Below the pieces are notes generated by a model. The model saw nothing but the letters and a program-made list of their open reading frames with translations. It made no database searches and was not told where the DNA came from. Below, in pieces: positions 11,487 to 56,233 of a stretch of 64,000 nucleotides of DNA. Position numbers and translations under genes: made by a program. Position 1 is the first letter of the stretch, and every line of letters starts with the position of its first letter. Source of the DNA: Micavibrio sp. UBA6145 (lineage in GTDB: Bacteria > Pseudomonadota > Alphaproteobacteria > Micavibrionales > UBA1664); NCBI GenBank assembly GCA_002423205.1, contig DIUZ01000024.1:199891-263890 (forward strand). The letters are read 5' to 3'.

Positions 11487-12359
11487 TCAGGCGGGGGTAT
11501 AGCCAGCGTTGCTGCGCTGAAATTCGCCCGGACGGACATACCGGCCGATTCCCCGCAGGGTGCGCGGCGCACCGAGGCCGAGCGTGGCCAGTTTGTTTTT
11601 CATGTTCCGAATGGGGGTATTCAGCCCGCGTTCATCCGCGACCGATTTGATGCCCTGCGCACGTAACTCGGTAATAAGCAGCGGCGTAGGTACCCATGCG
11701 TTTTGATACGCGGCCAGCACGCCAAGGGTTGCAGACTCGAGTTTGCTCAACGGCACAGGCTGGCCATCGGTGAATGTCGCCACATTATTCGTGCGGTCGA
11801 TCACAAGGTCGCCCAGCGTGACGGTTTGTCTTTGCGGATCGTCGACCAGTTCGGGCGAACGCAGGGGCGTATCGCATTCACCGGCCAGCACGGTCTGCAT
11901 GATGGTTTTGAAATGCTTCTGGCGCATGCTTTCCAGGAAGTTGAACGGTGGCACTGCGAATTGCTGCATCGGCAGATCGGCGTAGATCAGATCAATATGC
12001 GGGCAGGCGACGGCAGCGTTGAACAACGGCGTGGCACGGATCAGGCGAAGATCATCGGGGCGGCGGCCATTGAAAAAGACGGCGATCTTGCGATCCGGGT
12101 TTTGCGCCCGGATAGCGGCAAGGTTTTCGATCATGCTTTCGTCGCTGGAGCGGTAGACGGTTTCCACCGTGATGTCCTGCGCGATGATCAGGCTTTGCGT
12201 GTCGGTGATGTGGCTGCCCATCGGGCCCAGTTGCCTTATGCCGTGCGCGGGGCCGGGTATGGCGGTGGCATACGCAAACTTGTCCGTCAGGGTCTGGATC
12301 AAACCCATCTTCGCGATTTCCGGGTACTGGGACGGAACGTAGACGCCGTGACAAATCAT
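11487..12359 (-). CDS. Orphan OmpR/PhoB-type winged-helix DNA-binding protein with an unrecognised N-terminal domain
   Basis: The C-terminal ~100 aa fit the Trans_reg_C pattern (LGDLVIDRTNNVATFTDGQPVPLSKLESATLGVLAA...LNTPIRNMKNKL...LRGIGRYV). The track ORF starts at TTG 12386. First ATG is at 12359, alternative at 12308. Confidence 0.55.
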   Translation of the reverse strand: MICHGVYVPSQYPEIAKMGLIQTLTDKFAYATAIPGPAHGIRQLGPMGSHITDTQSLIIAQDITVETVYRSSDESMIENLAAIRAQNPDRKIAVFFNGRRPDDLRLIRATPLFNAAVACPHIDLIYADLPMQQFAVPPFNFLESMRQKHFKTIMQTVLAGECDTPLRSPELVDDPQRQTVTLGDLVIDRTNNVATFTDGQPVPLSKLESATLGVLAAYQNAWVPTPLLITELRAQGIKSVADERGLNTPIRNMKNKLATLGLGAPRTLRGIGRYVRPGEFQRSNAGYTPA

Positions 12360-12467
12360 GCCCCACCATGATCCGGGCAGGGCCAAAAAGGCAAGCGATT
12401 TTGCATTATGTTAATGATTCTGCGAGTGGGATGAGCGCCCGAAATGTGTTAAGATTTATCTGTCCGC

Positions 12468-14307: not shown

Positions 14308-15708
14308 ATGCCCGGCGGTACTATTTTACAGTCTAAAAAAGCCATTGCGGCGCTCACCATTCTGGGCGCATTTGCAAGCGCTTCGCATGGGCAGACGGAA
14401 GACGAACTGATCGCCGCGCGGCTGCAGGTGTTTGACAAGACAATGGCGGTCCTACGCGACAATCACTATCTCAAAGGCCGTTATGACGCTTTGGCTGCTG
14501 ATATTGAACGGGTTCGCGTCGACATCAGTAATGGGCGCCAGGATTTTTTTGAGGCGGTTGATGCGCTCGCTCAATCGTTTGATTCACGCACCTCGTTTTC
14601 CAAAATTGTTTTCAAGAAGAGGAAGCGCGATGCCAATGCTCTGGGTTTTGCAGCGCTGGGGTTAATTACGCAAAAAACGGGTGCGCGCCTGCTGGTGGAT
14701 CGTGTGTTTTTTAATACGTCAGGGTTCGGAGCGGGTTTAAAACACGGTGATGCCATTGTGTCCATCGATGGTAAATCTGTTACCGAGATGAATACAGCCG
14801 GGATTGATGAAGCCGTCTGCAATGATTTTGCCGATTTCACACAAATCGGCATTGCGCGCGGCAAAGGCAAAGCCGTCATTCAGCATGATCTTGAATGCAA
14901 TTATGATACCGAGCATGCGGTAGAGATGCGCGTCATTAACGATAAAATTGGATATATAAAAATAGATTCGTTTGTTGAATTCGTGGATTTTGATGTTCAG
15001 GAAGCGATTCAGACGATGCGTAAGACCCATCCTGGCGTCAAAAGCTATATTCTGGATTTGCGCGACAACACGGGCGGACAGGCGCTGGCCGCGCAGTCTC
15101 TGGTCGACTTATTTGTCGATTCTGGGGATGTATCCATGATTAAAAAAATCCGTGACGATAGCGGGAATGTTTACAACACTCCGGGCGATCATGCGCAAGC
15201 CGCGCCGCTTGTGGTTCTGGTCAATCATGATTCATGGTCCGCGGCAGAGCTTGCGCCCATGGCTTTGCAGTATCATCGACGTGCAAAAATTGTCGGGACA
15301 ATCACGGGCGGCAAAGGCACAAGCCAGAGAACTTTCAGTATTTTCCCCAATCGTCTCAGGAGCTTTTTGCCTGGCGGAGCGCTTACGATCACGGAAAGCG
15401 TCATTACCATGCCTGATGGCAATTCCCATCAATTGAAGGGTGTTATTCCGGACGTGCAGGTTCTTAGCAACCTGCTTCCAGCCAAAGCGCCACGTGAAGC
15501 GGATATGAAATTGGCAATACCCAATCCTATGGGCGGCGCGCTAACGCCCGCGGAAAAGGCGCGTACGGAAACTTGCGAAGTGCATGCCGATTTCAAGGGG
15601 GCCGCCGTTTACGGACATGATGGAAAAATCGACCCTATTCTGACATGTGGGGTCATGGTCCTTCGAAATCAGACTCAGGCCAAAGCCGCCGCTTTCGTGC
15701 CGCGATGA
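14308..15708 (+). CDS. S41 family C-terminal processing peptidase with PDZ domain, periplasmic
   Basis: Signal peptide, PDZ (GLKHGDAIVSIDGKSV), LDLRDNTGGQ block, Ser motif HDSWSAAEL and Lys motif GGKGTSQ. GC spot counts are 27-45% versus 63% in fliI. Confidence 0.8.
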   Translation: MPGGTILQSKKAIAALTILGAFASASHGQTEDELIAARLQVFDKTMAVLRDNHYLKGRYDALAADIERVRVDISNGRQDFFEAVDALAQSFDSRTSFSKIVFKKRKRDANALGFAALGLITQKTGARLLVDRVFFNTSGFGAGLKHGDAIVSIDGKSVTEMNTAGIDEAVCNDFADFTQIGIARGKGKAVIQHDLECNYDTEHAVEMRVINDKIGYIKIDSFVEFVDFDVQEAIQTMRKTHPGVKSYILDLRDNTGGQALAAQSLVDLFVDSGDVSMIKKIRDDSGNVYNTPGDHAQAAPLVVLVNHDSWSAAELAPMALQYHRRAKIVGTITGGKGTSQRTFSIFPNRLRSFLPGGALTITESVITMPDGNSHQLKGVIPDVQVLSNLLPAKAPREADMKLAIPNPMGGALTPAEKARTETCEVHADFKGAAVYGHDGKIDPILTCGVMVLRNQTQAKAAAFVPR

Positions 15709-17879
15709 TCGTCGATGTCGATCCAGCTTTTGCGGCTGGGGTCGGCGTTGAAATTCAATTCACCTGAAAAGCCGATATTGTTCACCGCGTCACGGTAACG
15801 CGCGCGCATGGCGTCGCGCATGGACGGGCTCATGGCCTGTTCACTGCGCAGTGTGACGTCAAGTTTGCGGCCTTGTGAAAACCCGTCGATCTGCATGGGG
15901 CCCATGCGGGTGAGGGACAGGTCCATGACAAAACGCATGCCGCCGTTTTTGGTTTTGTCCTTGCTGTCGTCCTGTCCCTGATCGAAGGAGCGGTAATGCA
16001 GTTGAATGCGGGCAATCTCGCCGCCGAAGATCAGCGGCAGGTTGAGCGATTTCCAGTCACCGGCGGGGCGCGCGTCTTCTTCGCGCATGGTTTGCGTCGC
16101 CGATGCGAAATCAGCTGTAAGGCGCGCCAGCGCGTCGGGCCTGCGGCCACCACGCACGGCTTCCAAACCCTTTTCACCCATCCATGCGGTGATGTCGCCG
16201 CCGCGAAGGGCGGCCACGAACATCAACACGGGCGCGGTGAATGCCGCGGCACCGGGTTTGGGTATTGCGGCCTGCAACGCGGCGGCTTGCGGGTTTTGTG
16301 TCGATGACGCGGTGCCGGTATGCAGCAGATCATCCAGCGTATCCCATGGCAGGCCCATGCCCGTGGCCTGCGGCATGCCGGTGGCCACGGGCGATGTCAT
16401 GGGCACGCCCGGTAAAACGTCGAGGCGCATGATGGTGCCGGGGACGAGGCCGCGTGCAGGATATTGCAGCACCATCTGCGAGATCGTGGTTTTGAGCGAG
16501 CCGTCGGCAGACAGGGTGAATGTCGGCATCTCCAGCACGGGCAGACCCTGTGGCGTTTGACCGGCGACCTGCGCAAACAATGCGGGTGTCGAGGGCGTGC
16601 CGTGGATCAGGTTTGTGCTTAACGCGTTTTGCAGGATCGGCGGGCTGGCGGTGGGAAGCACGGCGCTGATGCGTACGTCCAGAACCTGCACCGGCATCGT
16701 GTGCGACGACAGGCCGTTCGGTGTCGAGACAATCAGGTGCTGTGTCTGCGGGGTCGCGCCTTGCGGCAGGCTGGGCGTCAGGGATGTGGGTATCAATTGT
16801 CCCAGCGCTTGCGGTGCTGCAGCACCTGAAGATGTTGTGATGACGGGTGTTGCCATCGCACTGCCCGGCAGAATGATACGCGTATCACCCGCGGGCATTG
16901 CAGGCGTTGGTTGCGGCATGCCGGGTGTGGTGAGGATCGTTTGCTGCGGCAGCATGTTTTGCGCGATGCCGGTGGGTGTCGACGCCGGGACGATCACATT
17001 CGGGGTTGCGGATGATGGGATCAACGTTGCGGCAAGACCTGGCAGGGCGGGCGCGTTTAACGGCATGCCGGGTTGCGGCACAAAATTCTGGCCAAGCGCT
17101 AACGGTGTCAGGCGCACCATCTGCCCGATCTGCAGCGGGCGCTGCGCCGCGGCGGTCAATGAGGGTTCAGAAGAAGGAACGCCCAGCGTGTTGCCGGTTG
17201 CCTGTGTGGGCAGGGCCGGTGTTTTCAAAAACGTCTGCATCGATGTCTTTAAAAATTCGAGCAGGTTTTGCGGGCTGAGCTGGGGCTTTGCCGCGTCGGC
17301 GGTTTGCTGCAGCAAAACAACGCCGGACGGCAATGCCTGTTGCGGTGTTGGGGCGGGCGCATCGGACGGTACCGGGATGCTGGTGGGCAACGGCATTTGT
17401 GCCGTGGGTGTTTGCGTTTGTGGTGGCTGCGCCGGTGTTTGCTGCGGCTGGCCTGGCATGGCTGGATTTTGTGTGACGGGTGTCTGTCCCGGGATCTGTG
17501 GCGTCGGCACCTGTGGTATGGGCACTTGTGATTGCGGTGGTGCCGGTTGTGCGGGTATTTGCGGTTGTGCGGGCAGGGTGACGGTGACGGTGCGCGGCGG
17601 GTTGCCGGCGCGAATTTGCAGGTTCACCTCCGTCCCGCGCGCGGGCAGCGGCTGGGGCAGTTGCACATCAATGGGGCCGCGCGGGGTGTTGATGCGCGTG
17701 GTGCCGTCCGGGTTTTGTCCGGCCACAGTGCCCCGCAAGCTTACGTCACGGCCGTTATTCTGTAATGACGGCGGGAGAGACTGGGCCTGCGTTTCCACGT
17801 CCTGGCCATCCGGGGACGGCGCGGGCGACGCCGCCTGAACAGGGGGCACATAAGGAGACGGGGGCGTGACTGATGCCAT
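15675..17879 (-). CDS. Pro/Gln-rich protein with FliK-like (Flg_hook) C-terminal domain
   Basis: 734 aa. The N-terminal half is PQ-rich low complexity. The C-terminus MRFVMDLSLTRMGPMQIDGFSQGRKLDVTLRSEQ...NNIGFSGELNFNA aligns by pattern with the FliK C-terminus at 40904-42787. It follows flhG by 36 bp. Confidence 0.5.
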   Translation of the reverse strand: MASVTPPSPYVPPVQAASPAPSPDGQDVETQAQSLPPSLQNNGRDVSLRGTVAGQNPDGTTRINTPRGPIDVQLPQPLPARGTEVNLQIRAGNPPRTVTVTLPAQPQIPAQPAPPQSQVPIPQVPTPQIPGQTPVTQNPAMPGQPQQTPAQPPQTQTPTAQMPLPTSIPVPSDAPAPTPQQALPSGVVLLQQTADAAKPQLSPQNLLEFLKTSMQTFLKTPALPTQATGNTLGVPSSEPSLTAAAQRPLQIGQMVRLTPLALGQNFVPQPGMPLNAPALPGLAATLIPSSATPNVIVPASTPTGIAQNMLPQQTILTTPGMPQPTPAMPAGDTRIILPGSAMATPVITTSSGAAAPQALGQLIPTSLTPSLPQGATPQTQHLIVSTPNGLSSHTMPVQVLDVRISAVLPTASPPILQNALSTNLIHGTPSTPALFAQVAGQTPQGLPVLEMPTFTLSADGSLKTTISQMVLQYPARGLVPGTIMRLDVLPGVPMTSPVATGMPQATGMGLPWDTLDDLLHTGTASSTQNPQAAALQAAIPKPGAAAFTAPVLMFVAALRGGDITAWMGEKGLEAVRGGRRPDALARLTADFASATQTMREEDARPAGDWKSLNLPLIFGGEIARIQLHYRSFDQGQDDSKDKTKNGGMRFVMDLSLTRMGPMQIDGFSQGRKLDVTLRSEQAMSPSMRDAMRARYRDAVNNIGFSGELNFNADPSRKSWIDIDDHRGTKAAALA

Positions 17880-17915
17880 GCCCCCATCTTAGCAAAATTT
17901 CATTAATTTAGGAAT

Positions 17916-18764
17916 TCACGCGACAGCGGCGGCAGCGGCGGCTTCCTTGCGCAGGGCTTCGTCGACATTGCGGGCGATACGCTCAACATCCGTGGCGGCT
18001 TCCGAATTGGGCGAACGGATCAGAAGCGGCGTCTGGTGGCGGATGCAGTCCTTGACCTTGGGGTCATGGCGGATCATGCCGGCCAGCGGCGGCGACAGGC
18101 GCAGGAAGTTTTCACATGCTTTCAGAAGGGTCTTGTACGTTTTTTCGCCTTCCAGCGTGTTTGCCGCCTGGTTGATGACGATGCTGACGTTTTTCGACAT
18201 GCCGGCAGCCGAACCCAGTTTGATGAATGCGTAAGCATCCGTAAGCGAAGTCGGTTCGTCCGTCGTGACAAGCAGGGATTTGGTGGCCGATGCCGACATC
18301 ATGCGCACGGTGCGGTCGACGCCCGCGCCGAGGTCGACGACAACGGCGTCGTATTCGTGGGACAGGTCGATCAACTGATCGCGCAGCATGATCAGGCGCT
18401 GCGTCGGCAGGGCCGAGAGCGATGCCTGGCCGGAGCGGCCCGCGATAATGTCAAAACCGCCTTCTTCGTAACGCTGGACAACCTTGTCGAGCGACAGGCG
18501 TCCGCGAATGACGTCGTTCAGGTCGCGCTTGGGCATCAGGCCCAGTTGCACGTCCACGTTGGCGAGGCCCAGATCACCGTCAAACAGCAGAACCCTTTTG
18601 CCCTGACGCGCAAGCGCCGTGGTCAGCGAGATGGAGAACCATGTCTTGCCGACGCCGCCCTTGCCGGATGCGACGGCCAGGATGTTGTGACCGCGCGGGA
18701 AACCACCGCCGGTAACGGCATCGTTGCTGATGGGTTGGACAAGCGTGTTTGTAACCTCGGTCAT
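17916..18764 (-). CDS. flhG: MinD/ParA-type ATPase FlhG (FleN)
   Basis: Deviant Walker A SGKGGVGKT, then DGDLGLANVDV. Located immediately downstream of flhF. Confidence 0.85.
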   Translation of the reverse strand: MTEVTNTLVQPISNDAVTGGGFPRGHNILAVASGKGGVGKTWFSISLTTALARQGKRVLLFDGDLGLANVDVQLGLMPKRDLNDVIRGRLSLDKVVQRYEEGGFDIIAGRSGQASLSALPTQRLIMLRDQLIDLSHEYDAVVVDLGAGVDRTVRMMSASATKSLLVTTDEPTSLTDAYAFIKLGSAAGMSKNVSIVINQAANTLEGEKTYKTLLKACENFLRLSPPLAGMIRHDPKVKDCIRHQTPLLIRSPNSEAATDVERIARNVDEALRKEAAAAAAVA

Positions 18765-18767
18765 GGT

Positions 18768-19892
18768 TTATCCTGTTTGACGCAAGTTGCGGGGTGAAGC
18801 GGCACTTTCTGTACCGGTGGTGGGTCTGCCGCCTTTGGATGACGACAAGAGAAGCGTGGAAAGCGATTGCGCGGTCAGCGTGACGACACCGTTGGCGACC
18901 ATCGGCGTGTTGGACGCATCGCAAAATGCAAGGCCCGCGCGACCGGCCGCGGACAGCAGACCGCCAAGGCGGCGCGCAACATCAAGGCGGGTCGGGAAAA
19001 TACGTTGTACGCCAAGCACGGCGAAACAGCGCGCGACTTCGGCGGATTCTTCGGCGTCACCGCCTGCGGCCATGACCAGCACGGGTTCAATCGCACCGGC
19101 TTCAAGCAACTGGCTCTGGCGGCGCATGTCGTCGACGTCGAACGGGTTGGTGCCGCCGGTGTCGACCAGGATGAGATCGGCGCTGCGGGAATCTTCAAGA
19201 CGTGCGCGCAGTTCGGTGCCCGTGCGCGCCTTGAGCAGCGGGATGTTCAAAAGTTTGGTGAAGGCTTCGAGTTGCTCGACGCCGCCTGCGCGCTGCGTAT
19301 CCGTCGTGATGACGGCGGCGGTGTGTCCGGCCATGGCGGCGCGTGCGGCCAGTTTTGCGGTGGCCAGTGTCTTACCGGCGCCGGGTGCGCCGATCATCAT
19401 CAATGCCTTGGCCTTGTTCTTGATCGGCAGCGGCGCGAAACGGAAGGCGTGATCCATCGCCATTTTCATCGCGCTTTGTGCGTCGGTCATGCCCATCATG
19501 GTCGCGGTAGAAAGGATAATATCGCTGATATCACCCGGCACGCCGTGACGGAGCAGCGTATCGGTCAGCATTTCGTTGATGGCGTCTTCGGCGTCTTCTT
19601 CCGCGTCGTATTGCAGATAGTCTTCCGGCACGATGGCTTTGGGGCGCACGCGCACCTGTGCCACGCGGTCGGCTTGCGCCTGCGGTGCGGGTTCGGGCAT
19701 GCGGGTTTTCGTGCGCGGGGCGATTTCGAAATTCGGCATTTCATCCATGCGTTCGACGGCGGCGGTAACGCGCACAGAGCGCCCGCCGTTTTCTTCACGT
19801 GTCGCAACGATAATGGCATCGTCGCCCAACTGTTCGCGTACCATCTGCATCGCTTCAGTCATTGTCTTTGCATAAAAGGACTTTAGCCGCAT
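18768..19892 (-). CDS. flhF: Flagellar biosynthesis SRP-type GTPase FlhF
   Basis: G1 GAPGAGKT and G3 DTGG, with an NG-domain pattern. 374 aa. Confidence 0.85.
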   Translation of the reverse strand: MRLKSFYAKTMTEAMQMVREQLGDDAIIVATREENGGRSVRVTAAVERMDEMPNFEIAPRTKTRMPEPAPQAQADRVAQVRVRPKAIVPEDYLQYDAEEDAEDAINEMLTDTLLRHGVPGDISDIILSTATMMGMTDAQSAMKMAMDHAFRFAPLPIKNKAKALMMIGAPGAGKTLATAKLAARAAMAGHTAAVITTDTQRAGGVEQLEAFTKLLNIPLLKARTGTELRARLEDSRSADLILVDTGGTNPFDVDDMRRQSQLLEAGAIEPVLVMAAGGDAEESAEVARCFAVLGVQRIFPTRLDVARRLGGLLSAAGRAGLAFCDASNTPMVANGVVTLTAQSLSTLLLSSSKGGRPTTGTESAASPRNLRQTG

Positions 19893-20106: not shown

Positions 20107-20697
20107 TTAAGTGTTGTGCCAGCCGGGGGCGGCGTAACGGCCCGACAGGGGCAAGACATTCAGGCCGGTGTTTTCCATGACCTGCGCCAAAGCCGTCTGG
20201 CAATTATGACGGCCACGGCCCCAGCCGAAACGGTCATAGGGCAGGTTTTGCAGATCAATTTCGGCTGCCTGTGCACGCAGGTTTGTCCATAGATCGTTAA
20301 TCTGACTTTGTGCACCACAAATCAGCACCTGACGTTCAGTGGCGCGCGAATACTGCGTGGCGCAGCTATGAAAGGTGCTGTGTATTGTCGGGTAGTAACG
20401 GTGCAAGGGCGTGTGCTGCACGCAAGTACGGACGAGTTTGTCGATGCCGGTAAGGCCTGTGATAGCTGTAGATAATTCAAACAAACGGTTCAGGCGCGTG
20501 CGTGCTTTTTTCTCGACCGTGCTGCGCGTGCGATCATAAGGGCCGAGATGGATTTCGCCAGCAACGTTACCGTCTTCATCAATCAGCGCCAGAAATGGGT
20601 GGGATAAAGGCCGCTTGAACAGCGCGTAATCGAGATGGCGCGCCAGTTTGACCGGTCGCTCGCATAATTCGATATGCCATATCGGTGTATAAGCCAT
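20107..20697 (-). CDS. Hypothetical protein (196 aa), 42 bp downstream of flhA
   Basis: Clean ATG-started ORF with no signal peptide. The only pattern seen is His50 (GEIHLGPY) and Cys166 (RHNCQTAL). Confidence 0.5.
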   Translation of the reverse strand: MAYTPIWHIELCERPVKLARHLDYALFKRPLSHPFLALIDEDGNVAGEIHLGPYDRTRSTVEKKARTRLNRLFELSTAITGLTGIDKLVRTCVQHTPLHRYYPTIHSTFHSCATQYSRATERQVLICGAQSQINDLWTNLRAQAAEIDLQNLPYDRFGWGRGRHNCQTALAQVMENTGLNVLPLSGRYAAPGWHNT

Positions 20698-20739: not shown

Positions 20740-22836
20740 TCAAACCTGGCCCACGGTCTTGATGCGGACCTTGGGGTGGACTTCGTTCTGGCTCATCACA
20801 ATGGTGGACGGGCGGAAACGTTCGATGACCGAGCGGACATAGGGGCGGATACCCGGCGATGTAAGCAGCACCGGGGCTTCGCCGCGGCTCTGGAAATCTT
20901 CGTAGATGTCGCGCACGCGGGCGATGAATTGCTGCAGGTTGCTGGGTGCCATGACCAGCTGGCGTTCTTCGCCTTCGCCCATCAGCGCTTCGCTGAAGGC
21001 CTGTTCCCAATCAGGCGACAGGGTGATGAGGGGCAGCATGCCGTGGATGTTCATGTTGGCCGTGCAGATCTGGCGCGACAGGCGCGAGCGCACATGTTCG
21101 GAAATCAGCGCCACTGACTTGGTGTACAGGCTGGCTTCGGAAATACCTTCGAGAATGGTCGGCAGATCGCGGATGGATACACGTTCGGAGAGCAGGTTCT
21201 GTAGCACGCGCTGCAGGCCCGAGAGCGAGATCTGCGACGGGATAACGTCGGCGACCAGTTTCTGGAACGGCTTGCCCATTTCGTCGAGCAGTTTCTGCGT
21301 CTCGGTATAGGACAGAAGATCGGCCATGTTGTCTTTGACGATTTCCGTCAAATGCGTGGTGACGACGGTGCTGGAATCCACGACGGTGTAGCCGCGGAAG
21401 TTTGCTTCTTCGCGGTATTGTTCATCAATCCACATGGCGGGCAGGCCGAAGGTCGGTTCCATCGTGGCTTCGCCGGGCAGGGTGATGGGTTCGCCCGACG
21501 GGTCCATGCACAGAAGCATGCCGGGGCGCACGGTGCCGCGGCCGGCTTCGATTTCCTTGATGCGCACGACGTAGTCGGATGCGGTGAGCTGCAAATTATC
21601 CTGAATGCGCACGGACGGCAGGACGAAGCCCATTTCTTCTGCCAACTGGCGGCGCAGGCCCTTGATCTGGTCGGTCAGTTTGTGACCTTCCGCGTTGACG
21701 AGGGTGAGCAGGCCGTAACCCAGTTCGAGGCGGATGATATCCATGGCCAGCGATTTGCTGATCGGTTCTTCCACTGGCTTGGCCTTGGCGGTTTCCTGCG
21801 CGGCGATCTGGACACGCTGGTTTGCAAGCTCGCGGCTTTTTTTGTTCAGGAAATACGACAGGGTACCCATGGCAGCAGCCAGTACGGCAAAGGGCAGGAA
21901 GGGCAGGCCCGGTATGATCGCCATCATGCCCATTGTGCCGGATGTCAGCGCCAGACCCTTGGGATATTGTGAGAATTGTTTGAACAGTGCCTTGTCGGCA
22001 GAACCGGCAACGCCACCCTTGGACACCAGCAGACCGGCGGCGATGGATACGAGCAGCGCGGGAATTTGTGTGACAAGACCGTCACCCACGGTCAGGAAGG
22101 TGTAGTTGTGGGTGGCGTCGCCCATGGACAGATCGTACTGGACCGTGCCGATGATGATGCCGCCGATGATGTTGACGAAGGTGATGATCAGGCCGGCAAT
22201 GGCGTCGCCGCGCACGAATTTCGCGGCACCGTCCATGGCACCGTAGAAGTTCGATTCCTGTTCCAGTTCGGTGCGGCGGGTGCGGGCCTGGTCCTCGGTG
22301 ATAAGGCCTGCGGACATATCGGAGTCGATCGCCATCTGTTTGCCGGGCATGGCGTCCAAACTGAAACGTGCGGCGACTTCGGCGATACGGCCCGAACCCT
22401 TGGTGATAACCACGAAGTTGATGATGATCAGGATCGCGAAGACAATGATACCGATCACGAAATTGTCGCCCATAATGAACGATCCGAAGGCCTTAATAAC
22501 GTGACCGGCAGCATCAGTGCCGGTATTGCCTTCACCCAGAATGATGCGTGTGGTGGCCACGTTTAGAGAAAGCCGCAACATTGTCGCAATGAGCAGCGTG
22601 GTCGGGAATGTCGTGAAATCCAGCGGGCGTTCAATGAACAGCACCGTCATCAGGATCAGGACGGAGAAGGTGATGGATAATGCCAGCGCAATATCCAGCA
22701 GCCATGTCGGAAACGGAAAGATCAGGCCGGAGATGATGCACAGGATGGCAAGCGCGAACAGAATGTCACCGCGGGCCAGCGTTGAACGCAGGCTTGCGAA
22801 ATCCATTCCCGGTGTAGATGCGGCTGGCTCAGCCAT
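20740..22836 (-). CDS. flhA: Flagellar export apparatus protein FlhA
   Basis: 698 aa. N-terminal polytopic FHIPEP region (GDGLVTQIPALLVS) and a large cytoplasmic C-domain. Confidence 0.97.
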   Translation of the reverse strand: MAEPAASTPGMDFASLRSTLARGDILFALAILCIISGLIFPFPTWLLDIALALSITFSVLILMTVLFIERPLDFTTFPTTLLIATMLRLSLNVATTRIILGEGNTGTDAAGHVIKAFGSFIMGDNFVIGIIVFAILIIINFVVITKGSGRIAEVAARFSLDAMPGKQMAIDSDMSAGLITEDQARTRRTELEQESNFYGAMDGAAKFVRGDAIAGLIITFVNIIGGIIIGTVQYDLSMGDATHNYTFLTVGDGLVTQIPALLVSIAAGLLVSKGGVAGSADKALFKQFSQYPKGLALTSGTMGMMAIIPGLPFLPFAVLAAAMGTLSYFLNKKSRELANQRVQIAAQETAKAKPVEEPISKSLAMDIIRLELGYGLLTLVNAEGHKLTDQIKGLRRQLAEEMGFVLPSVRIQDNLQLTASDYVVRIKEIEAGRGTVRPGMLLCMDPSGEPITLPGEATMEPTFGLPAMWIDEQYREEANFRGYTVVDSSTVVTTHLTEIVKDNMADLLSYTETQKLLDEMGKPFQKLVADVIPSQISLSGLQRVLQNLLSERVSIRDLPTILEGISEASLYTKSVALISEHVRSRLSRQICTANMNIHGMLPLITLSPDWEQAFSEALMGEGEERQLVMAPSNLQQFIARVRDIYEDFQSRGEAPVLLTSPGIRPYVRSVIERFRPSTIVMSQNEVHPKVRIKTVGQV

Positions 22837-29313: not shown

Positions 29314-30567
29314 TCAGATTTGTGCGGCAAGGCCGGGTATTGATCGCTGCGGCGTTGCGGATGGTGCATTGCCGGAAGCGGCGATTTTTTCGCCAAAGTC
29401 GCGCGCGGCCTGTCCGGGCAGCGCGTCTTCGATCATGACAATCTGGCCCTTATACCCCTTGGCGTCTTTCAGGTTAAGGAGGCCCGGGGTCATCACTTCT
29501 TCGCGGTGGGTGCCGCCGATCATCGTGTCTTTTTCGGTGCCGATGCGGTGCGCGACATAGTTTTTGCCGGGCGCTTCGCTGTGGAATTCGCCGTTCGTGG
29601 CCAGGCCGCTGGTCCATACGTTGCCCCACGAGGCGCGCAGAGATGTCTGGTTTTGTTGCAGGTTGGCGCGGAATTCATCTCGGCTGACGATTTCGCTCAT
29701 ATACGCAAGGTTGCGCATCAGGCGATGTTCAAGATTACGGTCATGCGCGCGTGGTTCCACCAGGAATGATTTGAAGCCCAGGCCCGTCAGCGTCATTGCA
29801 GGCAGGGTGCCGCCGGAATGCCCGGCCAGGACAAGTTTGTCTTTGATTGTTTCACCGTTTTCGTAGCCGAGTGTTTGCGCGGTGGTGCCGTTGGCGATCG
29901 TGATGCTGCCCTGTTTCAGATCGGTATCGAGTTCGCCGATATATTCCTTCATGGCGCGGGTGGCGCGTAAAAATGTGCTGCCCTTGTAAGTGTCTTCGGC
30001 ATTGAACAGCACGTCTCCGTAATCGCCAATGCCGCGGCTGGCCATGCCCATGAAGTTCTGCGAGATGTTGTTTGTGCCGCTGCCTGGCGTATCGCCTTCA
30101 AGGCCGGGGGCTGCGATCATGATCTTACCGCTGGCCTTGTGATACAGGGTCACGAAATATGCGTTGCCCATTTTTTTGCGCTGGTCTTTCAGGCTTGCGC
30201 GGCCATGACGTTCGTTCCAGCGGTTGCTGTCATCGAGGACAAGAAAGGGGCTATCCGGTTTGCCGAAATAATCGGCCATCGCCTTTTCCATGTTGAAGAC
30301 GTTGGTAGCACGGCCGTCGAGATCGGTGTTGTCCTGTGTGACCGGTGCGGTGGTGGGGTCGCGCATATTCGCACCGACATAATAGGCAGCGTAGGTTGCC
30401 ATCATGGTGTCTGCCATCGGGATGCCCTGAACCGTCTGGGTGCTGATATCGGTTTTTTTCATCTCAGGTTGCGGTATGTCTGGCGCCTGACTGCTTGCAT
30501 CAGAGCCCCTTACGGAGCCGAAGAAAATGGCCGCCAGGGATTTGCGGGTGAACGACGCTGGTTTCAT
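29314..30567 (-). CDS. Putative alpha/beta-hydrolase (GxSxG esterase/lipase-like), uncharacterised
   Basis: 417 aa with a nucleophile-elbow motif LVLAGHSGGT. No clear Sec signal peptide. Lies between flaG and fliF. Confidence 0.5.
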   Translation of the reverse strand: MKPASFTRKSLAAIFFGSVRGSDASSQAPDIPQPEMKKTDISTQTVQGIPMADTMMATYAAYYVGANMRDPTTAPVTQDNTDLDGRATNVFNMEKAMADYFGKPDSPFLVLDDSNRWNERHGRASLKDQRKKMGNAYFVTLYHKASGKIMIAAPGLEGDTPGSGTNNISQNFMGMASRGIGDYGDVLFNAEDTYKGSTFLRATRAMKEYIGELDTDLKQGSITIANGTTAQTLGYENGETIKDKLVLAGHSGGTLPAMTLTGLGFKSFLVEPRAHDRNLEHRLMRNLAYMSEIVSRDEFRANLQQNQTSLRASWGNVWTSGLATNGEFHSEAPGKNYVAHRIGTEKDTMIGGTHREEVMTPGLLNLKDAKGYKGQIVMIEDALPGQAARDFGEKIAASGNAPSATPQRSIPGLAAQI

Positions 30568-34462: not shown

Positions 34463-37400
34463 TCAATAGGACTTAAGGTTTTCCTGTGCCGTCTTTGTCC
34501 ATTTTTTTACCATATTTTCTTTACGGCGTAGTGCGGCTATAGCCGCATCCATTTTCCGAAAGGCGCTGGGGTCTTCGTAAAATATCGGACTTGATAAGGC
34601 GGTCATTTTTTCAATTCCCATAAAGCTCAAAACATTTGTTCCGGTTGTGAAAGGTTGGGTGGGAATGCCTGCAGCGTGCGACATGAGACAGGTTGAATGA
34701 AAACCGCTGATGACCAACTTCGCCCCAAGAAGAGTGGCGGTAAATTGTTCTGCCGACTGTGCGTCTATGGTTTCGAAATGGCCGCCAATCAGCTCGGACA
34801 TATCTTTTTCGAGCATCATATCTTCCTGAGATAGGTGCCATTGCGCCCCTTTGAGGAGCGTGGGCTGCAATCCTTGTTCCCGAAGATGCAGGCACAATTT
34901 GGCAAAAACTGGTGCGTAGAATGACGTGTACCCTGGGCCGGCGGTGATGACCGCGGTGTTATGCTTTTCGATTTTCGGTTTAGACTCTAGGTAATCCGAA
35001 AGCCAGAGTAGTGCGGTATCCATACCCAAAGTACATGGAATATTGATTGAACGCAGGATGTCGTAAGATATCTGGTCGCGTACAACGCAGGCATCCAGTT
35101 TTGTGTAAACCTTGTGATAGAAGGCCAGTTTTTGTGGGTCGCTTAGTGAAGGTTTGTCTTCCGGGAAGACTGAATGGTTGATAATGCTGACTTTTTTGCC
35201 AAAAAACTGTTTTGCGATATAAGCAAGATACAGCATATAGAGCGCTGTATCGCTCAGACCGTTCATCATGCTCTCGCCGTTAATTATGATCTGGTCGGAT
35301 TGTTCGATTGCATAGAATAAAGTGGGATTTTTGTAACGCCAGTAAGCCAGAAAACGGCGGTCATCGAAATCCTGTAATGTCGGTTTCCCAACGGGAAACC
35401 AGTTCAGCGCGATCGTGGAAAGATCTTCGACGTCATAATTCTTTTTCTCCAGCACGGACTTTATCCCCTGCATGGACGCATAGTGCCCCCAGGTGAATGC
35501 AGCGCCAGTATCATTGATGAGAAACGCACGTTTTTTCTTTTTACTGTTGGCAGGAAATAAGCGTTGGTATTTGCGCGGGGCTATACAGTTTTTATCGCCT
35601 GCAATAAATTTACGAAACTCTGCGTCGACGCGGACAAACAATTCCGTATAGTCTTTTTGTGTCTGACGGAAAAGGCGCAGGGATTCATACCAAGGCGTGG
35701 CCTCGCCGCTCACTGGCCAGCGCCAAAAAGGTTCCTGCGCGAGGATGGTCCAGCATGGCACGCCCATGGCGCCCGCGGCATGAACAGTTGTGTTGTCGAT
35801 AGATATAATCAAATCGCAGGCTGCAATCTGGTCCATGAATGGTTGCATGGCTGTCCATGAATCGACTTTGTCGTCATGAAAAATATGGAATCCTTTTTCT
35901 GCGGCATCCTTGCGTTCCGCAGATGTGTCGCCGTACTGCAAATCGATTACACGAATATTGTCGTATTTTGCCAAGAAATCGAAATCCATCAATTTCAGGG
36001 AGCGTATATATCCGGCATCGAGGCTTTTTGTGTACCAGGAAATGCCAACCACAAATTCCTTATTGCTGTCTTTCTTGTAATCAAGTGTTTTGTCTTTTTT
36101 CAGGTAATGATCGGTATGAGGTATTTCGTCAATTTCAGTGTTGAAGATGTGTGGCAAGGTTGTTGCTGCGACAAGCAGGTCGATCGTATTGTCGGTATGT
36201 AGAGCGGGATCAAAAAATTCAACCTTGCCGCTTTCGAATATCTCAGGAAAGCTGACAGAGAAGAGCGCTTCCATTTTTTGGTTAACGTTAATGATCAGTT
36301 TTTGTGGCGCGTATCTATTAACGATCTCGGGCACGTATCGCATCATCATGATAATGTCGCCAATGCCCTGATCCGCATAAAACATCAAGGTTTTGTCGCT
36401 GATATCTTCACCATACCAGCGCGGCGTGCTTTCAGGCATGCGCTTGCTGGTTAGTTTTGCCTTGTGCCAATACCATTCCAGTTCAGCAAAAGCTTTTGGA
36501 TATTGTTCCATTTTGAGGGCAGCCACGCCAATGGCGTAATGAACATCCGGTGAAAGCGGGTCAACCGCCAGCGCTTTTTCCAGATCACCTTCCAGGTTTA
36601 AGTATTCTTTTTTGTAGCGATGAATGGTCGACCGATTAAGGTATGGGGCCATCATCAACTTATCGAGACGGGTTGCTTCGTCAAAGCATGCCAATGCTTC
36701 GTCTATGCGGGCATTTCCGAGATAAGACAGGCCAAGATTGCATTTGTATACAGCGCTTTCCGGATCGAGAGCTGCGGCTTTTGCAGAGGCCTCCAGCGCT
36801 TTGTCGAACTGGCGCAGTGCCGTATAAGCACGTTCCAGTGCGGACCATGCTTCCGGCGCTTGGGGGTATTCCTGTGTTGCGTTGAGCGCGACAGTTTCTG
36901 CCCTTTGAAGCTCCTGATTCATGATCAGTGCATCGACATATTGAGCCGTCTGGTTTGGTGTATTTGTCGCCTGGCTCTCGTAAACTTTAATAGCCAGGCC
37001 AGGCTTCAGGGTTTTGACCAGGCTAAGCATCAAAGCTTCGCGATAATCCCCGTCAGCCATGAAGGCTGCTTGGCACACTTCCAGTTCGAGACATTTTAAG
37101 GCGGCGTCGTAATTCTCGACTTTCGAAAACGCTATACCTGCCTTGCGGTATGCGCGTGGATCTTTGGTGATTTGCGCATATTCCAGGTAATGCCCGGCTG
37201 CGTGTATAAGGTCGTTATTTTTGAACGAAATTTCACCAAGGTAATAAAGAGCCTGGGGGGCCGCGCTAAAGTCTTTGATGCTAAGTAACAGGAGGCGTGC
37301 CTGTGTAAATTTTTCCTGCTTAATCAGGTTTACCGCCTGACGCGTGATTTCGTCATTGGGCGAGGGGTCTGTGATGGCGCTGGACGTTTGCTGAGGTAGC

Positions 37401-37975
37401 GAAGTGGCAGTTTGACGATTCTTATCTTGAGGTTTCACGATAAGGTAAAACTCACCGTGAACGCTCTCCGCAAAAGTTACATCCATGACTTCATTCCACT
37501 TGTCCAGCCACCAGGACGGATGTTCGATGATCAGGTGTGCATTTCTTCCGTCAGGAAGACGGTGAACGGCGGGGACGCATGAAATGACTAAAAACGCAGC
37601 TTTCAGCGTACGGTGGGCAATGTCTGCCATTACGTTGTCAAGAAAACTAGGTTCAATATGTTCCATGACATCTGTGCAGATCAGCAGATCGGCCTGATGC
37701 TTATCGTCAGCTTTCTCAGGAATCGCTGGATCGTATTCGTAAAAGGCTACCTCTTTATAAGGAGAATTCGGTTTTTTTTGTTCTTCTCGGAAAAGTGTGC
37801 CGATCGTGCCCTTGCCGCATCCATAGTCCAGAACTGATTTTGCATCTAGTTCGCCAATAAGTTTTAAAACTGTCTGGTAATGTATCTGGCCGGTATTACC
37901 CCAGGTGTTATCATCCTGGTGTTTTTCCTGGAGCTGAGAGCGGTAATCATCGGACAGTGTCTTGGGCTGGGTCAT
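34463..37975 (-). CDS. Four-module protein: SAM methyltransferase + TPR + GT9-like glycosyltransferase + polysaccharide pyruvyl-transferase-like domain
   Basis: Module 1 (aa ~30-180): VLDYGCGKGTIG and DLLICTDVMEHI. Module 2 (aa ~205-500): TPR-like helical repeats. Module 3 (aa ~500-790): ADQGIGDIIMMMRYVP...DLIISIDNTTVHAAGAMGVPCWTIL, a GT9/heptosyltransferase-like pattern. Module 4 (aa ~800-1170): ...LVISGFHSTCLMSHAAGIPTQPF, a pyruvyl-transferase-like pattern. GC spot counts are 38-45%. Confidence 0.6.
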   Translation of the reverse strand: MTQPKTLSDDYRSQLQEKHQDDNTWGNTGQIHYQTVLKLIGELDAKSVLDYGCGKGTIGTLFREEQKKPNSPYKEVAFYEYDPAIPEKADDKHQADLLICTDVMEHIEPSFLDNVMADIAHRTLKAAFLVISCVPAVHRLPDGRNAHLIIEHPSWWLDKWNEVMDVTFAESVHGEFYLIVKPQDKNRQTATSLPQQTSSAITDPSPNDEITRQAVNLIKQEKFTQARLLLLSIKDFSAAPQALYYLGEISFKNNDLIHAAGHYLEYAQITKDPRAYRKAGIAFSKVENYDAALKCLELEVCQAAFMADGDYREALMLSLVKTLKPGLAIKVYESQATNTPNQTAQYVDALIMNQELQRAETVALNATQEYPQAPEAWSALERAYTALRQFDKALEASAKAAALDPESAVYKCNLGLSYLGNARIDEALACFDEATRLDKLMMAPYLNRSTIHRYKKEYLNLEGDLEKALAVDPLSPDVHYAIGVAALKMEQYPKAFAELEWYWHKAKLTSKRMPESTPRWYGEDISDKTLMFYADQGIGDIIMMMRYVPEIVNRYAPQKLIINVNQKMEALFSVSFPEIFESGKVEFFDPALHTDNTIDLLVAATTLPHIFNTEIDEIPHTDHYLKKDKTLDYKKDSNKEFVVGISWYTKSLDAGYIRSLKLMDFDFLAKYDNIRVIDLQYGDTSAERKDAAEKGFHIFHDDKVDSWTAMQPFMDQIAACDLIISIDNTTVHAAGAMGVPCWTILAQEPFWRWPVSGEATPWYESLRLFRQTQKDYTELFVRVDAEFRKFIAGDKNCIAPRKYQRLFPANSKKKKRAFLINDTGAAFTWGHYASMQGIKSVLEKKNYDVEDLSTIALNWFPVGKPTLQDFDDRRFLAYWRYKNPTLFYAIEQSDQIIINGESMMNGLSDTALYMLYLAYIAKQFFGKKVSIINHSVFPEDKPSLSDPQKLAFYHKVYTKLDACVVRDQISYDILRSINIPCTLGMDTALLWLSDYLESKPKIEKHNTAVITAGPGYTSFYAPVFAKLCLHLREQGLQPTLLKGAQWHLSQEDMMLEKDMSELIGGHFETIDAQSAEQFTATLLGAKLVISGFHSTCLMSHAAGIPTQPFTTGTNVLSFMGIEKMTALSSPIFYEDPSAFRKMDAAIAALRRKENMVKKWTKTAQENLKSY

Positions 37976-40903: not shown

Positions 40904-42787
40904 TTAAACCACGATATTGACGTGGGTCAGGCCGGTTACCGGATCTACGAAGACCGACATGACGGTATGAATGGTTGCAAGGTCCGTGCCATCTTCATCG
41001 GACGGCTTATTTCCGCCGTTTTGATAGGAATTACCGTTCTGGGACATGTTGCCGGAAAAGGAATTGTTATCGCCCAGGCTGAATGTCAGGCCGTCGGCTT
41101 TGACGTCGAATCCGGTGTTGTGCAGTGATTTTTCAAGCGCAGCCGCATCCTTTTGCAGAAGGGCGACGGTTTCCGGACGCTCGGCAATCAGCTTGGCTTT
41201 CACGGTGTTGTTCTCACCGAATTCAAGCGTCACTTTAACGCGGCCCAGATTTTCCGGGTCGAGCTGGATGGTGAACTGGCGGTCGCCGCCGGGAATGCCG
41301 CCTTCGGCCGCGCGGGCCAGAGACACAGACACGAGATGTATGGCCGGGTGCGGGACGCTGGCGGTTTTTGCCATCAGCAATGTGCTGGCGGCGGCGGATG
41401 TGCCGGCCGATTCAGCACGCACCGGGAAGGCCGTGTCGAGGCTGAGGCTGGAAGACATGTCGCCGGCATCAGCGTCGGCACTGATCAGGGATGTATCAAG
41501 ACCTTTGAGGGCCGTACCGGCATTGATGGCGGTTTTGCCCGGCTGCAATTGCGCGGCGAATGACTGGACCAGCGGCGTGCCCTGCGCCACAGACGACTGC
41601 GGAAGGACGGGGCCTTGTGCAAATTGCAGGGCGGCGTCGGCGGTCTGTGCCTTGGCGGCGGCAGTCGTGGTCGCGGTTTTTTGTGCCTCGCTGCTGGGTA
41701 CGCCCAGAAGCGCGGCATAAAGACCGGCGCGGTTGAAGGCCATGGTCTGTGCGTCCGTGGTCTGTGCCGTAGATGTGACCGGTGTTTGCGTGACCTTGCC
41801 GGCGGCGCGCGCGATGACAGCGGCGTCGAGGAAAATGGGGGCGGCGGATACGCCCGCCTGATTTTGCGCCTGTGCGTCCAGTGCGGACTGAACATGCGAT
41901 ACGGCTTGTGACGACAGATGGGCAAGGACACCCGCGGGCAGTGCGCCGACGTTTTCCGATACACGAATGAATGTGACGCGCGGTGCGTTCGGGTCGAGCA
42001 GGAAGTCCGGCCCTTGCGCGATATTCATGATGGTGTGCGCGTCAACGCGCACGGCGCGTGTTTCGGTCAGGAACGGTGCCAGATCGGCAAAGGCCAGCTT
42101 CTTGAAGGCGTTGAACTGGTCCAGATCCATGTCGGCGACATTGATGGTGACATTGCCCTTGTCGGTGACCAGCACCAGGCCGTCACCATTTTCGCTGACA
42201 TGCGCGGCGGTGACATTGGCTGTGGTGCCCAGGGTTTTGGACGCAAGTTCATCGAACAGGCCGGCAAAGGCACCGTCTTTAATATCTGTCGTGGCCGTGC
42301 CTTTCAGCGCGGCGGAAAGCTGGCCCAGCAGTTTGGCAATCTCCGGGTCCTGCATGAACAGGCCTTCGATCGATTGTGTCTGCGTTGTCAGGCTGGCCAG
42401 CGTGTCGAGCATGGATTGCGCGGTTTCATCCAGCGTGCCGTCCGGCGTCATGTGCGGGGCGAATACGGCAGCCAGCGGACCGGGCAGGGATGCGAGATCT
42501 TCGGTTTTAAGGCTTTGAAGCCTGGCCAGAAGGTCCGGCGAAACGCTGATCAGTTCGATCAGGCCGGACTGGTCGGCGTTGGCGGGTTTAGCCCCAGACA
42601 AAAAGTCACTGGCAGCCACCTGGCTTGCGCGCGACTTGGCAAGGCCGCCAAGCAGCAGGGATTTAAATGCCTCGGCATCACCGCCGCCGAGCAGGGCGTC
42701 GCCGATCGATGCCGTGCCTTTACCTTTTGCACCGGCAGATGTGGCCGCGCCAAGCAGTTGTGCAATATTGAATGATGCGTTTGCCAT
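40904..42787 (-). CDS. fliK: Hook-length control protein FliK
   Basis: C-terminal Flg_hook pattern FTIQLDPENLGRVKVTLEFGENNTVKAKLIAERPETVALLQKDAAALEKSLHNTGF. Located upstream of flgD-flgE. Confidence 0.8.
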   Translation of the reverse strand: MANASFNIAQLLGAATSAGAKGKGTASIGDALLGGGDAEAFKSLLLGGLAKSRASQVAASDFLSGAKPANADQSGLIELISVSPDLLARLQSLKTEDLASLPGPLAAVFAPHMTPDGTLDETAQSMLDTLASLTTQTQSIEGLFMQDPEIAKLLGQLSAALKGTATTDIKDGAFAGLFDELASKTLGTTANVTAAHVSENGDGLVLVTDKGNVTINVADMDLDQFNAFKKLAFADLAPFLTETRAVRVDAHTIMNIAQGPDFLLDPNAPRVTFIRVSENVGALPAGVLAHLSSQAVSHVQSALDAQAQNQAGVSAAPIFLDAAVIARAAGKVTQTPVTSTAQTTDAQTMAFNRAGLYAALLGVPSSEAQKTATTTAAAKAQTADAALQFAQGPVLPQSSVAQGTPLVQSFAAQLQPGKTAINAGTALKGLDTSLISADADAGDMSSSLSLDTAFPVRAESAGTSAAASTLLMAKTASVPHPAIHLVSVSLARAAEGGIPGGDRQFTIQLDPENLGRVKVTLEFGENNTVKAKLIAERPETVALLQKDAAALEKSLHNTGFDVKADGLTFSLGDNNSFSGNMSQNGNSYQNGGNKPSDEDGTDLATIHTVMSVFVDPVTGLTHVNIVV

Positions 42788-56149: not shown

Positions 56150-56233
56150 AAAAGGGTTGAAAACGTAAAGGTCTTTAGGGCTCTAACGTTGACCGTACAC
56201 AGGCCCCATGTCAGGGTGAAATGTAAGGATCCC

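Follow-up and report, generated by a model that had tools for sequence, protein, structure and literature searches.

The flagellar gene cluster of Micavibrio sp. UBA6145 encodes, immediately after flhG, a 734-residue protein whose C terminus very probably harbors a divergent T3S4/Flg_hook-type domain (residues ~646-711), a remote relative of that of FliK. We use the working name X for this protein, the product of the open reading frame (ORF) at 15675..17879 on the minus strand of the window—the 64-kb stretch of contig DIUZ01000024.1 that was analyzed, and to which coordinates refer unless otherwise stated. X is the product of a real and widely conserved gene of the flagellar cluster, and its family is best described as one of divergent T3S4-domain proteins with an architecture of their own, specific to Rhodospirillales-type flagellar clusters. 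T3S4 proteins acting on FlhB switch substrate specificity, a key step in building flagella and injectisomes that is under debate to this day, and, to our knowledge, all models take a single ruler or switch protein per machine. From its sequence, X looks like a second T3S4-like protein beside a canonical FliK in one flagellar system.

A probable T3S4-type domain at the C terminus

Three concordant tests of weak to moderate strength underlie the T3S4 assignment: comparison of the family consensus with Pfam, profile–profile alignment with controls, and comparison of the predicted fold with PscP. The original prediction had noticed a pattern-level resemblance of the C terminus to the FliK Flg_hook domain and proposed a profile search with PF02120, the gathering score of which is 29.8 bits. 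A Pfam scan of whole X gave no match, and its C-terminal 225 residues alone scored 13.0 bits (E 0.09, residues ~640-704). When the family consensus, taken from a hidden Markov model (HMM) of 205 members, was scanned instead, PF02120 ranked first among Pfam families (22.7 bits, E 8.9e-5), in a match that spans profile positions 4-77 of 85 and is still below the gathering score.

For the profile–profile comparison, a FliK alignment of 13 C-terminal sequences was assembled from plasmid, chromid and Escherichia coli records. It comprises the FliK of the window, two database relatives, E. coli FliK, and several replicon FliKs from Azospirillum, Indioceanicola, Niveispirillum, Methylobacterium, Sphingobium, Paroceanicella and Paracoccus; a homologue search with the C-domain of the window FliK yielded 2 proteins only. 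Aligned by hhalign, the X and FliK profiles scored 33.5-35.1 (P 0.9-1.8e-4) with 66-80 aligned columns covering the T3S4 core, compared with 14.2 for the reversed control and 12.1±2.4 (maximum 19.5) for 100 column shuffles. Foldseek searches of the PDB with both of the AlphaFold2 models made for X, one of the C-domain and one of the full-length protein, converged on the substrate-switch (T3S4) domain of the Pseudomonas needle ruler PscP (5cuk), with a probability of 0.99-1.00. The alpha/beta domain of X superposes on 5cuk with a target-normalized template-modeling (TM) score of 0.50-0.51 and a root-mean-square deviation (rmsd) of 2.8 Å over 69 columns at 13% identity. It is the sole compact, low-rmsd match in the PDB, the other Foldseek matches of similar E-value having an rmsd of 6-17 Å and a TM score of 0.10-0.18.

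The FliK comparison extends to a strand of known function. In FliK, Val-302 and Ile-304 of strand beta2 photo-crosslink to the FlhB cytoplasmic domain (FlhB_C) and are critical for switching (PMC6972891). This strand aligns with an invariant strand of X, G660-P-M-Q663-I-D665-G666 (family consensus GxVQLDG), by a mapping inferred from Salmonella numbering via E. coli FliK.

A number of results count against the assignment, and no single homology test of the C-domain is strong. The PF02120 score of X alone falls below the gathering score, which no X sequence tried has reached; only 4 of 24 homologues matched the model individually, and weakly at that (best E 0.045). The hhalign probability is 48-59% only, and the Foldseek E-value for 5cuk is 0.05-0.1, with no PDB match at E<=1e-3. 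A sequence-profile search of the PDB with the C-domain alignment recovered no FliK, YscP or PscP, and BLASTP of the C-domain against the window FliK returned nothing. (An OSCP match in the same profile search of the PDB was dismissed as a chance match.) By the Pfam criterion X is outside the FliK family, since its PF02120 score lies under the gathering threshold. The resemblance first noted in the sequence is real as remote homology, on the evidence of consensus, hhalign and fold, and sub-threshold where PF02120 is applied to X itself. Likewise, the description of X as FliK-like suits its C-domain and overall layout, but not its Pfam score or its position outside the hook operon.

A large family that has escaped annotation

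Searching with the whole protein retrieved 34 homologues of 541-820 amino acids (aa), all unnamed or 'hypothetical' and none with a precomputed Pfam domain. A profile built on the last 227 aa, run against 1.84 billion cluster representatives (50% identity clusters), matched 3,307 of them at E<=1e-3, including 2,314 with E<=1e-30; among the best 150 of the 3,307 matches most are 570-800 aa long, and the domain is C-terminal in all but one. A homologue search with the C-domain profile brought up only 'hypothetical' proteins and no PF02120-annotated bridge sequence. No model in Pfam or NCBIfam covers the family, RefSeq names the Azospirillum lipoferum 4B orthologue (WP_014188891.1) 'hypothetical protein', and our literature searches found no paper on X or its relatives. 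Some members (P0205, P0188, P0176, P0187) are, as called, only 230-370 aa long, essentially the C-domain alone, and lie on long contigs.

Domain architecture, length and cysteine content

Homologue alignments and the two AlphaFold2 models together give the anatomy of X set out in Table 1. The C-domain model reached a predicted local distance difference test (pLDDT) of 85.6 and a predicted TM score of 0.76; the full-length model averaged a pLDDT of 64.8, its confidence being clearly bimodal. Folded parts alternate with disordered Pro/Gln-rich spacer totaling ~300 residues, and most residues invariant across the family lie in or at the alpha/beta domain: W609, P615, R649, F650, G660, Q663, D665, G666, G706 and F710. 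Homology links the two beta domains (hhalign probability 84%, P 7e-6), which, judged from their sequences, are an internal duplication. They bear a weak Foldseek resemblance to OB (oligonucleotide/oligosaccharide-binding) folds such as IF1 and the PAN N-domain, and HMM searches of both against FliK sequences detected no similarity to FliK N-termini. Neither a signal peptide nor a transmembrane segment is evident in the sequence, and the AlphaFold2 model has no N-terminal helix.

This anatomy qualifies the earlier impression that the first ~400 residues are extended. The spacers are indeed disordered, but the claim is only partly right, because this region also contains a confidently predicted beta domain (residues 26-102) and short conserved elements at 203-217 and 254-259. 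Proline makes up 13.9% and glutamine 8.9% of X. No DNA tandem repeats underlie the Pro/Gln-rich region; its richness is compositional rather than the product of recent repeats. For low-complexity sequence, length appears moderately constrained: across 141 representatives the whole protein measures 678±48 aa and the part preceding the C-domain 458±47 aa. At 0.37 nm per residue of extended chain (PMC6972891), the two spacers (~290 residues) could span ~105 nm if fully extended.

X contains no cysteine, nor do 141 of the 148 full-length family members, and the frequency for the family is 0.009%. Across the motif-derived loci described below, X has 0.023% Cys as against 0.66% for FlhG, 0.70% for FlhF, 1.34% for FliI, 0.44% for CtrA and 0.24% for FlhA. 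In the window, the proteins exported through the flagellar channel—flagellin, FlgE, FlgD, FliK, FlgG and FlgF—all have 0 Cys, and most cytoplasmic flagellar proteins have 1-4. Such avoidance is consistent with passage through a type III channel and is no proof of it: FliJ, a small cytoplasmic coiled-coil protein, is likewise Cys-poor in the motif-derived loci (0.03%), FliG, FliF, MotA and FliJ of the window also have 0 Cys, and disordered proteins in general commonly avoid the residue.

The X locus and its relatives

The gene itself was found as predicted from the sequence: an ORF with an ATG start, encoding a 734-aa Pro/Gln-rich protein (its coordinates take in the stop codon), that begins at 17879 after an flhG stop codon ending at 17916, leaving a gap of 36 nucleotides (nt). 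A GGGGG run precedes the ATG, and no promoter-like or terminator-like consensus was found in the gap on the X strand, which makes co-transcription with flhF-flhG plausible. The accompanying claim that a separate, positional FliK occupies 40904-42787 was also confirmed, by a PF02120 match and a place beside flgD-flgE. By Pfam, the window contains fliP, fliM, flgF, flgG, flgA, flgH, fliK, flgD, flagellin, fliF, fliG, motA, flhF, flhG and fliJ, none of them detected more than once, and flgI, flgE, a sigma-54 activator, flhA, fliI and ctrA were identified via their translations and synteny with Pfam-annotated relatives. Given flagellar genes in single copy, X is a second FliK-like candidate in what looks like one system.

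Table 1. Coordinates of X, its segments, the genes upstream and the canonical fliK in the window (aa, residues of X)
Feature	Position	Strand	Remarks
flhA, export gate	20740..22836	-	Translation and synteny; head of the flhA-flhF-flhG-X string
flhF, GTPase of the SRP (signal recognition particle) type (SRP54 domain)	18768..19892	-	Pfam; same strand as X
flhG, MinD/ParA-type ATPase	17916..18764	-	Pfam; directly upstream of X
flhG-X spacer	17880..17915	-	36 nt, G-rich ribosome-binding stretch
X ORF	15675..17879	-	734 aa
X aa 1-25, disordered N terminus	17805..17879	-	Ser/Thr/Pro/Ala-rich; pLDDT 42-50
X aa 26-102, beta domain 1 (OB-like)	17574..17804	-	pLDDT ~90; T65 and G68 invariant
X aa 103-253, Pro/Gln-rich disordered spacer 1	17121..17573	-	AlphaFold2 model
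X aa 203-217, conserved amphipathic helix	17229-17273	-	Within spacer 1; alignment and AlphaFold2
X aa 254-259, isolated conserved beta strand	17103..17120	-	GQMVRLTPL motif; alignment and AlphaFold2
X aa 260-399, Pro-rich disordered spacer 2	16683..17102	-	pLDDT <50
X aa 400-490, beta domain 2	16410..16682	-	Strands 400-408 and 433-488; pLDDT 80-90
X aa 513-602, five-helix bundle	16074..16343	-	Family-specific; conserved LPxPG and GDxxxWLG motifs
X aa 610-712, alpha/beta domain	15744..16052	-	Beta hairpin, then b-b-b-a-b core (b, beta strand; a, alpha helix)
X aa 646-711, b-b-b-a-b core	15747-15944	-	Aligns with the FliK T3S4/Flg_hook domain
X aa 713-734, C-terminal tail	15678..15743	-	Low confidence, poorly conserved
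Canonical FliK	40904..42787	-	PF02120, E 4.2e-15; adjoins flgD-flgE

The surroundings of X are conserved well beyond Micavibrio. Four genomes were compared: a Rhodospirillales metagenome-assembled genome (MAG; CP060260), that of Azospirillum halopraeferens, one alphaproteobacterial genome of 4 Mb, and that of A. lipoferum 4B. All have the gene order (fliF...fliN-motA-)flbD-flhA-flhF-flhG-X, and three of them continue with convergent fliJ-fliI and, beyond these, a regulator like ctrA. The start of X overlaps or abuts the flhG stop in loci L004 and L006. A back-translated scan for the motif RF..D......G..Q.DG, in one genome per GTDB species, recovered at least 120 loci, and the X domain is encoded in 118 of the 120 among the motif matches listed. 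Where the listed loci extend at least 3 kb upstream, flhG precedes X on the same strand in 48 of 54; where they extend at least 5.5 kb, flhA is present in 16 of 22; and convergent fliI lies downstream in 37 of 63 listed loci.

This order has exceptions. Loci L005 and L102 carry X directly after flhA, with neither flhF nor flhG at the locus, and a full-length member in L037 (923-2863 of that locus) is outside flagellar clusters altogether, adjoining a resistance-nodulation-division (RND) efflux system. On account of these exceptions, we consider the tightest link of X to be with the flhA export-gate cluster and not strictly with flhF-flhG. Co-transcription with flhF-flhG, as originally proposed, is plausible and the order is strongly conserved, although the association is better described as one with the flhA cluster.

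Named hosts among the matches listed are all Rhodospirillales-type or Micavibrio-like alphaproteobacteria: Azospirillum, Nitrospirillum, Thalassospira, Terasakiella, Nisaea, Magnetospirillum, Phaeospirillum, Magnetovibrio, Roseospira, Roseospirillum, Dongia, Ferrovibrio, Elstera, Stellaceae, Inquilinaceae, Roseomonas and Micavibrio-like bacteria. No named host among these matches belongs to the Caulobacterales, Hyphomicrobiales or Rhodobacterales. The best-scoring relatives of the window FlhG, FlhF and X come from MAGs labeled Micavibrio or 'Pseudobdellovibrionaceae/Bdellovibrionales' (L028, L033, L053, L101, L112, L133), so that the window probably derives from a predatory alphaproteobacterium of the Micavibrio-like kind. 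Three X-bearing contigs (L017, L077 and L134) were binned into Patescibacteria, Mycobacteriaceae and Paceibacterota MAGs, and probably represent bin contamination in public assemblies.

A gene for an S41 C-terminal-processing peptidase (14308-15708, plus strand; Peptidase_S41, E 3e-34; N-terminal signal-like sequence) is convergent to X, overlaps its 3' end by 34 nt and separates X from fliJ-fliI. To judge by its appearance it was inserted into the flagellar cluster in this lineage, since the relatives L001 and L002 carry a different, 269-aa gene there; L001 also has an unannotated gene after flhA. In Azospirillum (L003 9902-10267; L006 9645-9998), X is followed by a ~120-aa ORF that has no Pfam match and shares 4 nt with the end of X, including its stop codon; the window has no such ORF.

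Comparison with known systems

FliK, the PF02120 protein of which 2RRL is the Salmonella FliK_C core structure, offers the closest parallel. Both proteins combine an N-terminal region, a Pro/Gln-rich flexible spacer and a C-terminal b-b-b-a-b switch-type domain; profile–profile and consensus-to-Pfam similarity run across the whole T3S4 core; the hydrophobic strand by which FliK contacts FlhB_C aligns with the invariant X motif; and both lack Cys and are encoded in the flagellar cluster. They differ in that X is under the PF02120 gathering threshold and shows no similarity by BLAST to its own genome's FliK, is encoded with the early genes flhA-flhF-flhG whereas the hook-operon place by flgD-flgE is held by canonical FliK, and has parts that FliK lacks: a pair of folded OB-like domains, an additional beta hairpin and a bundle of five helices. 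X also coexists with canonical FliK in a single flagellar system. The injectisome rulers YscP/PscP share with X a 'ball and chain' design, a long flexible chain bearing a small terminal switch domain, and supply in 5cuk the best geometric match of the predicted C-domain. That match has only 13% identity and a Foldseek E-value of 0.05-0.1, and X is flagellar rather than of an injectisome and has extra domains.

T3S4 proteins need not be rulers. Xanthomonas HpaC binds HrcU's C-terminal domain (HrcU_C) and controls specificity without length control, and secretion-deficient variants of FliK and YscP still switch (PMC2427183). HpaC/HpaP of Xanthomonas and Ralstonia thus set a precedent for specificity control via an FlhB-family protein with no ruler involved. 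HpaC is much smaller than X, at ~210 aa by its deletion derivatives (PMC2427183), and belongs to an injectisome-type (translocation-associated) system; compared with X by description only, it has no long spacer or beta domains.

A second FliK-C-like protein in one flagellar system is also not without example. Pseudomonas putida FliK2 (PP_4328), which is FliA-dependent, paired with flhX and uncharacterized, occurs in a single polar system that likewise uses FlhF and FleN (bioRxiv 10.1101/2021.08.29.457346). FliK2 is known to InterPro (IPR021136), whereas X is unrecognized by Pfam; FliK2 is late and paired with an FlhB_C paralogue, whereas X lies in the early flhA operon; and X has an architecture of duplicated OB-like domains and a helical bundle. 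A search for NPTH or NPEH motifs revealed no FlhB- or FlhX-like ORF in the window, and the gene after X in Azospirillum is a small ORF without a Pfam match. HubP/FimV and PopZ, finally, resemble X in their long disordered Pro-rich or acidic linkers and in being tied functionally to FlhF/FlhG in bacteria with polar flagella. A transmembrane segment and LysM, FimV or PopZ domains are absent from X, and its C-terminal fold is another one; membership of these families was rejected, as no such Pfam or NCBIfam family appears in any segment of X.

What X may do

By analogy with FliK, YscP/PscP and HpaC, we tentatively favor, at a little under an even chance, a conserved flagellar accessory protein whose T3S4-like domain docks on FlhB at the export gate and affects export. 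X, with its FliK-like three-part layout, would be made early, from the flhA-flhF-flhG gene string. At the type III export gate of the flagellum, its T3S4-like domain would dock on FlhB_C and thereby might influence the choice of exported substrates or the timing of their export; the distal end, for sensing or anchoring, would be formed by the beta domains and spacer. Since the family is nearly without Cys, like the exported axial proteins of the cluster, X is somewhat likelier to be itself a type III export substrate, in the style of a tape measure, than to be purely cytoplasmic. Several considerations detract from this picture: three domains of X fold with confidence, its gene accompanies those of early cytoplasmic regulators rather than hook genes, a few family members lie away from flagellar clusters (L037), and the binding of X to FlhB and its export are purely inferred. 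A narrower proposal, which we think unlikely, makes X a second, early-made exported tape measure that, in polar flagellates of the Rhodospirillales type, times an export step other than the hook-to-filament switch of FliK. X might, for example, gauge completion of the rod or periplasmic part and then license hook export, or couple maturation of the gate to the control of flagellar number by FlhF/FlhG. Were this true, two T3S4 proteins would act in sequence on one FlhB.

Two candidate roles had been put forward in the original prediction, a ruler for another structure and a polar scaffold. X could be a polar scaffold or adaptor, a cytoplasmic hub that uses its disordered Pro/Gln-rich arms and small beta domains to tether FlhF, FlhG or the nascent MS-ring and export gate to the pole; as such it would be the alphaproteobacterial counterpart of HubP/FimV/FipA-type partners, its T3S4-like domain merely a protein-binding module. 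Its place directly downstream of flhF-flhG in 48 of the 54 informative loci listed, probably in one transcript, would suit such a role, as would named hosts (118 listed loci) that are Rhodospirillales-type or Micavibrio-like and have flhF-flhG beside X where upstream sequence is known. Long disordered Pro-rich linkers are typical of polar organizers, and we know of no named pole-anchoring partner of FlhF in these bacteria, none having surfaced in literature searches. We nonetheless give a scaffold only a small chance: X lacks a transmembrane segment, LysM, FimV motif or known hub domain (Pfam, NCBIfam), loci L005 and L102 pair it with flhA in the absence of flhF and flhG, its near-total Cys avoidance is unlike FlhF and FlhG, and its conserved part is a T3S4-like C-domain, a type of domain that acts on the export gate wherever it has been studied. 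The T3S4-like domain is accommodated if X is instead a non-exported regulator of the HpaC kind, a cytoplasmic protein that would bind FlhB_C and set or delay specificity without measuring length, perhaps binding early substrates too. HpaC itself, and the FliK and YscP variants that switch without being secreted (PMC2427183), are precedents; early-operon expression with the gate component FlhA and the three confidently folded domains fit as well. X is, however, ~3 times the length of HpaC, a long and length-constrained spacer would be needless in a simple cytoplasmic regulator, the Cys avoidance resembles that of exported proteins, and the helical bundle and beta domains have no HpaC counterpart; a regulator of this kind therefore seems rather doubtful to us.

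More radically, the b-b-b-a-b core might represent a widespread small fold, the result of convergence or of very ancient divergence, and X be functionally unrelated to T3S4—a basal-body structural or assembly component particular to the lineage, for instance part of a ring or cage in the cytoplasm or periplasm. The similarity statistics are all marginal, S-adenosylmethionine synthetase and other alpha/beta proteins score near PscP in Foldseek, and other large uncharacterized proteins in the flagellar cluster of the window make lineage-specific motor components plausible. Against this, three independent methods arrive at the same family in the same register, the competing Foldseek matches have poor geometry next to that of PscP, and shuffled and reversed hhalign controls fall far under the real score; we regard the absence of any functional tie to T3S4 as quite improbable. 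There is next to no chance that the ORF is a non-coding or low-complexity artefact of GC-rich DNA. The X region does have the highest G+C of the window (0.638) and a long antisense ORF (16597-17838, plus strand), one homologue is annotated 'DNA polymerase III, partial', and the sole NCBIfam match of X is a weak one to DNA polymerase III tau/gamma. The annotation is a typical low-complexity mis-hit, and the tau/gamma identity was rejected as an artefact of the same kind. Thousands of homologues sharing conserved globular domains and invariant residues, their alignment, a confident AlphaFold2 prediction and conserved synteny refute the artefact reading. The antisense ORF itself, a 413-aa Cys/Gly-rich frame opposite the stretch of X rich in Pro and Gln, is with near certainty no gene but a shadow ORF of the GC-rich coding strand.

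Other uncharacterized genes of the cluster

Further ORFs in the flagellar cluster of the window have no Pfam match. The largest (56189-59191, plus strand, 1000 aa) lies between fliM and fliP. Its product has a signal-peptide-like N terminus, a stretch rich in Ala and Pro and a long C-terminal half that is helical and repeat-like, and might serve as a periplasmic motor scaffold specific to the lineage. Three smaller ones are on the minus strand: 20107-20697 (196 aa) between flhF and flhA, 11487-12386 (299 aa) between ctrA and fliI, and 29314-30567 (417 aa) upstream of fliF. Between the flagellin gene and flgE, the 1170-aa product of 34463-37975 (minus strand) combines a methyltransferase domain, many tetratricopeptide (TPR) repeats and a polysaccharide pyruvyl-transferase domain; modification of flagellin glycans is a candidate function for it.

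Implications

At a minimum, a large family without a Pfam or NCBIfam model gains a domain model that can be proposed and a flagellar annotation. For specialists, the question raised is why one flagellar machine carries two T3S4-like proteins. The alphaproteobacterial group concerned includes Azospirillum, Magnetospirillum, Thalassospira and Micavibrio, several of them genetically tractable. Numbering thousands of clusters and encoded beside flhA, flhF and flhG, the X family points to an unrecognized layer of control in polar flagella.

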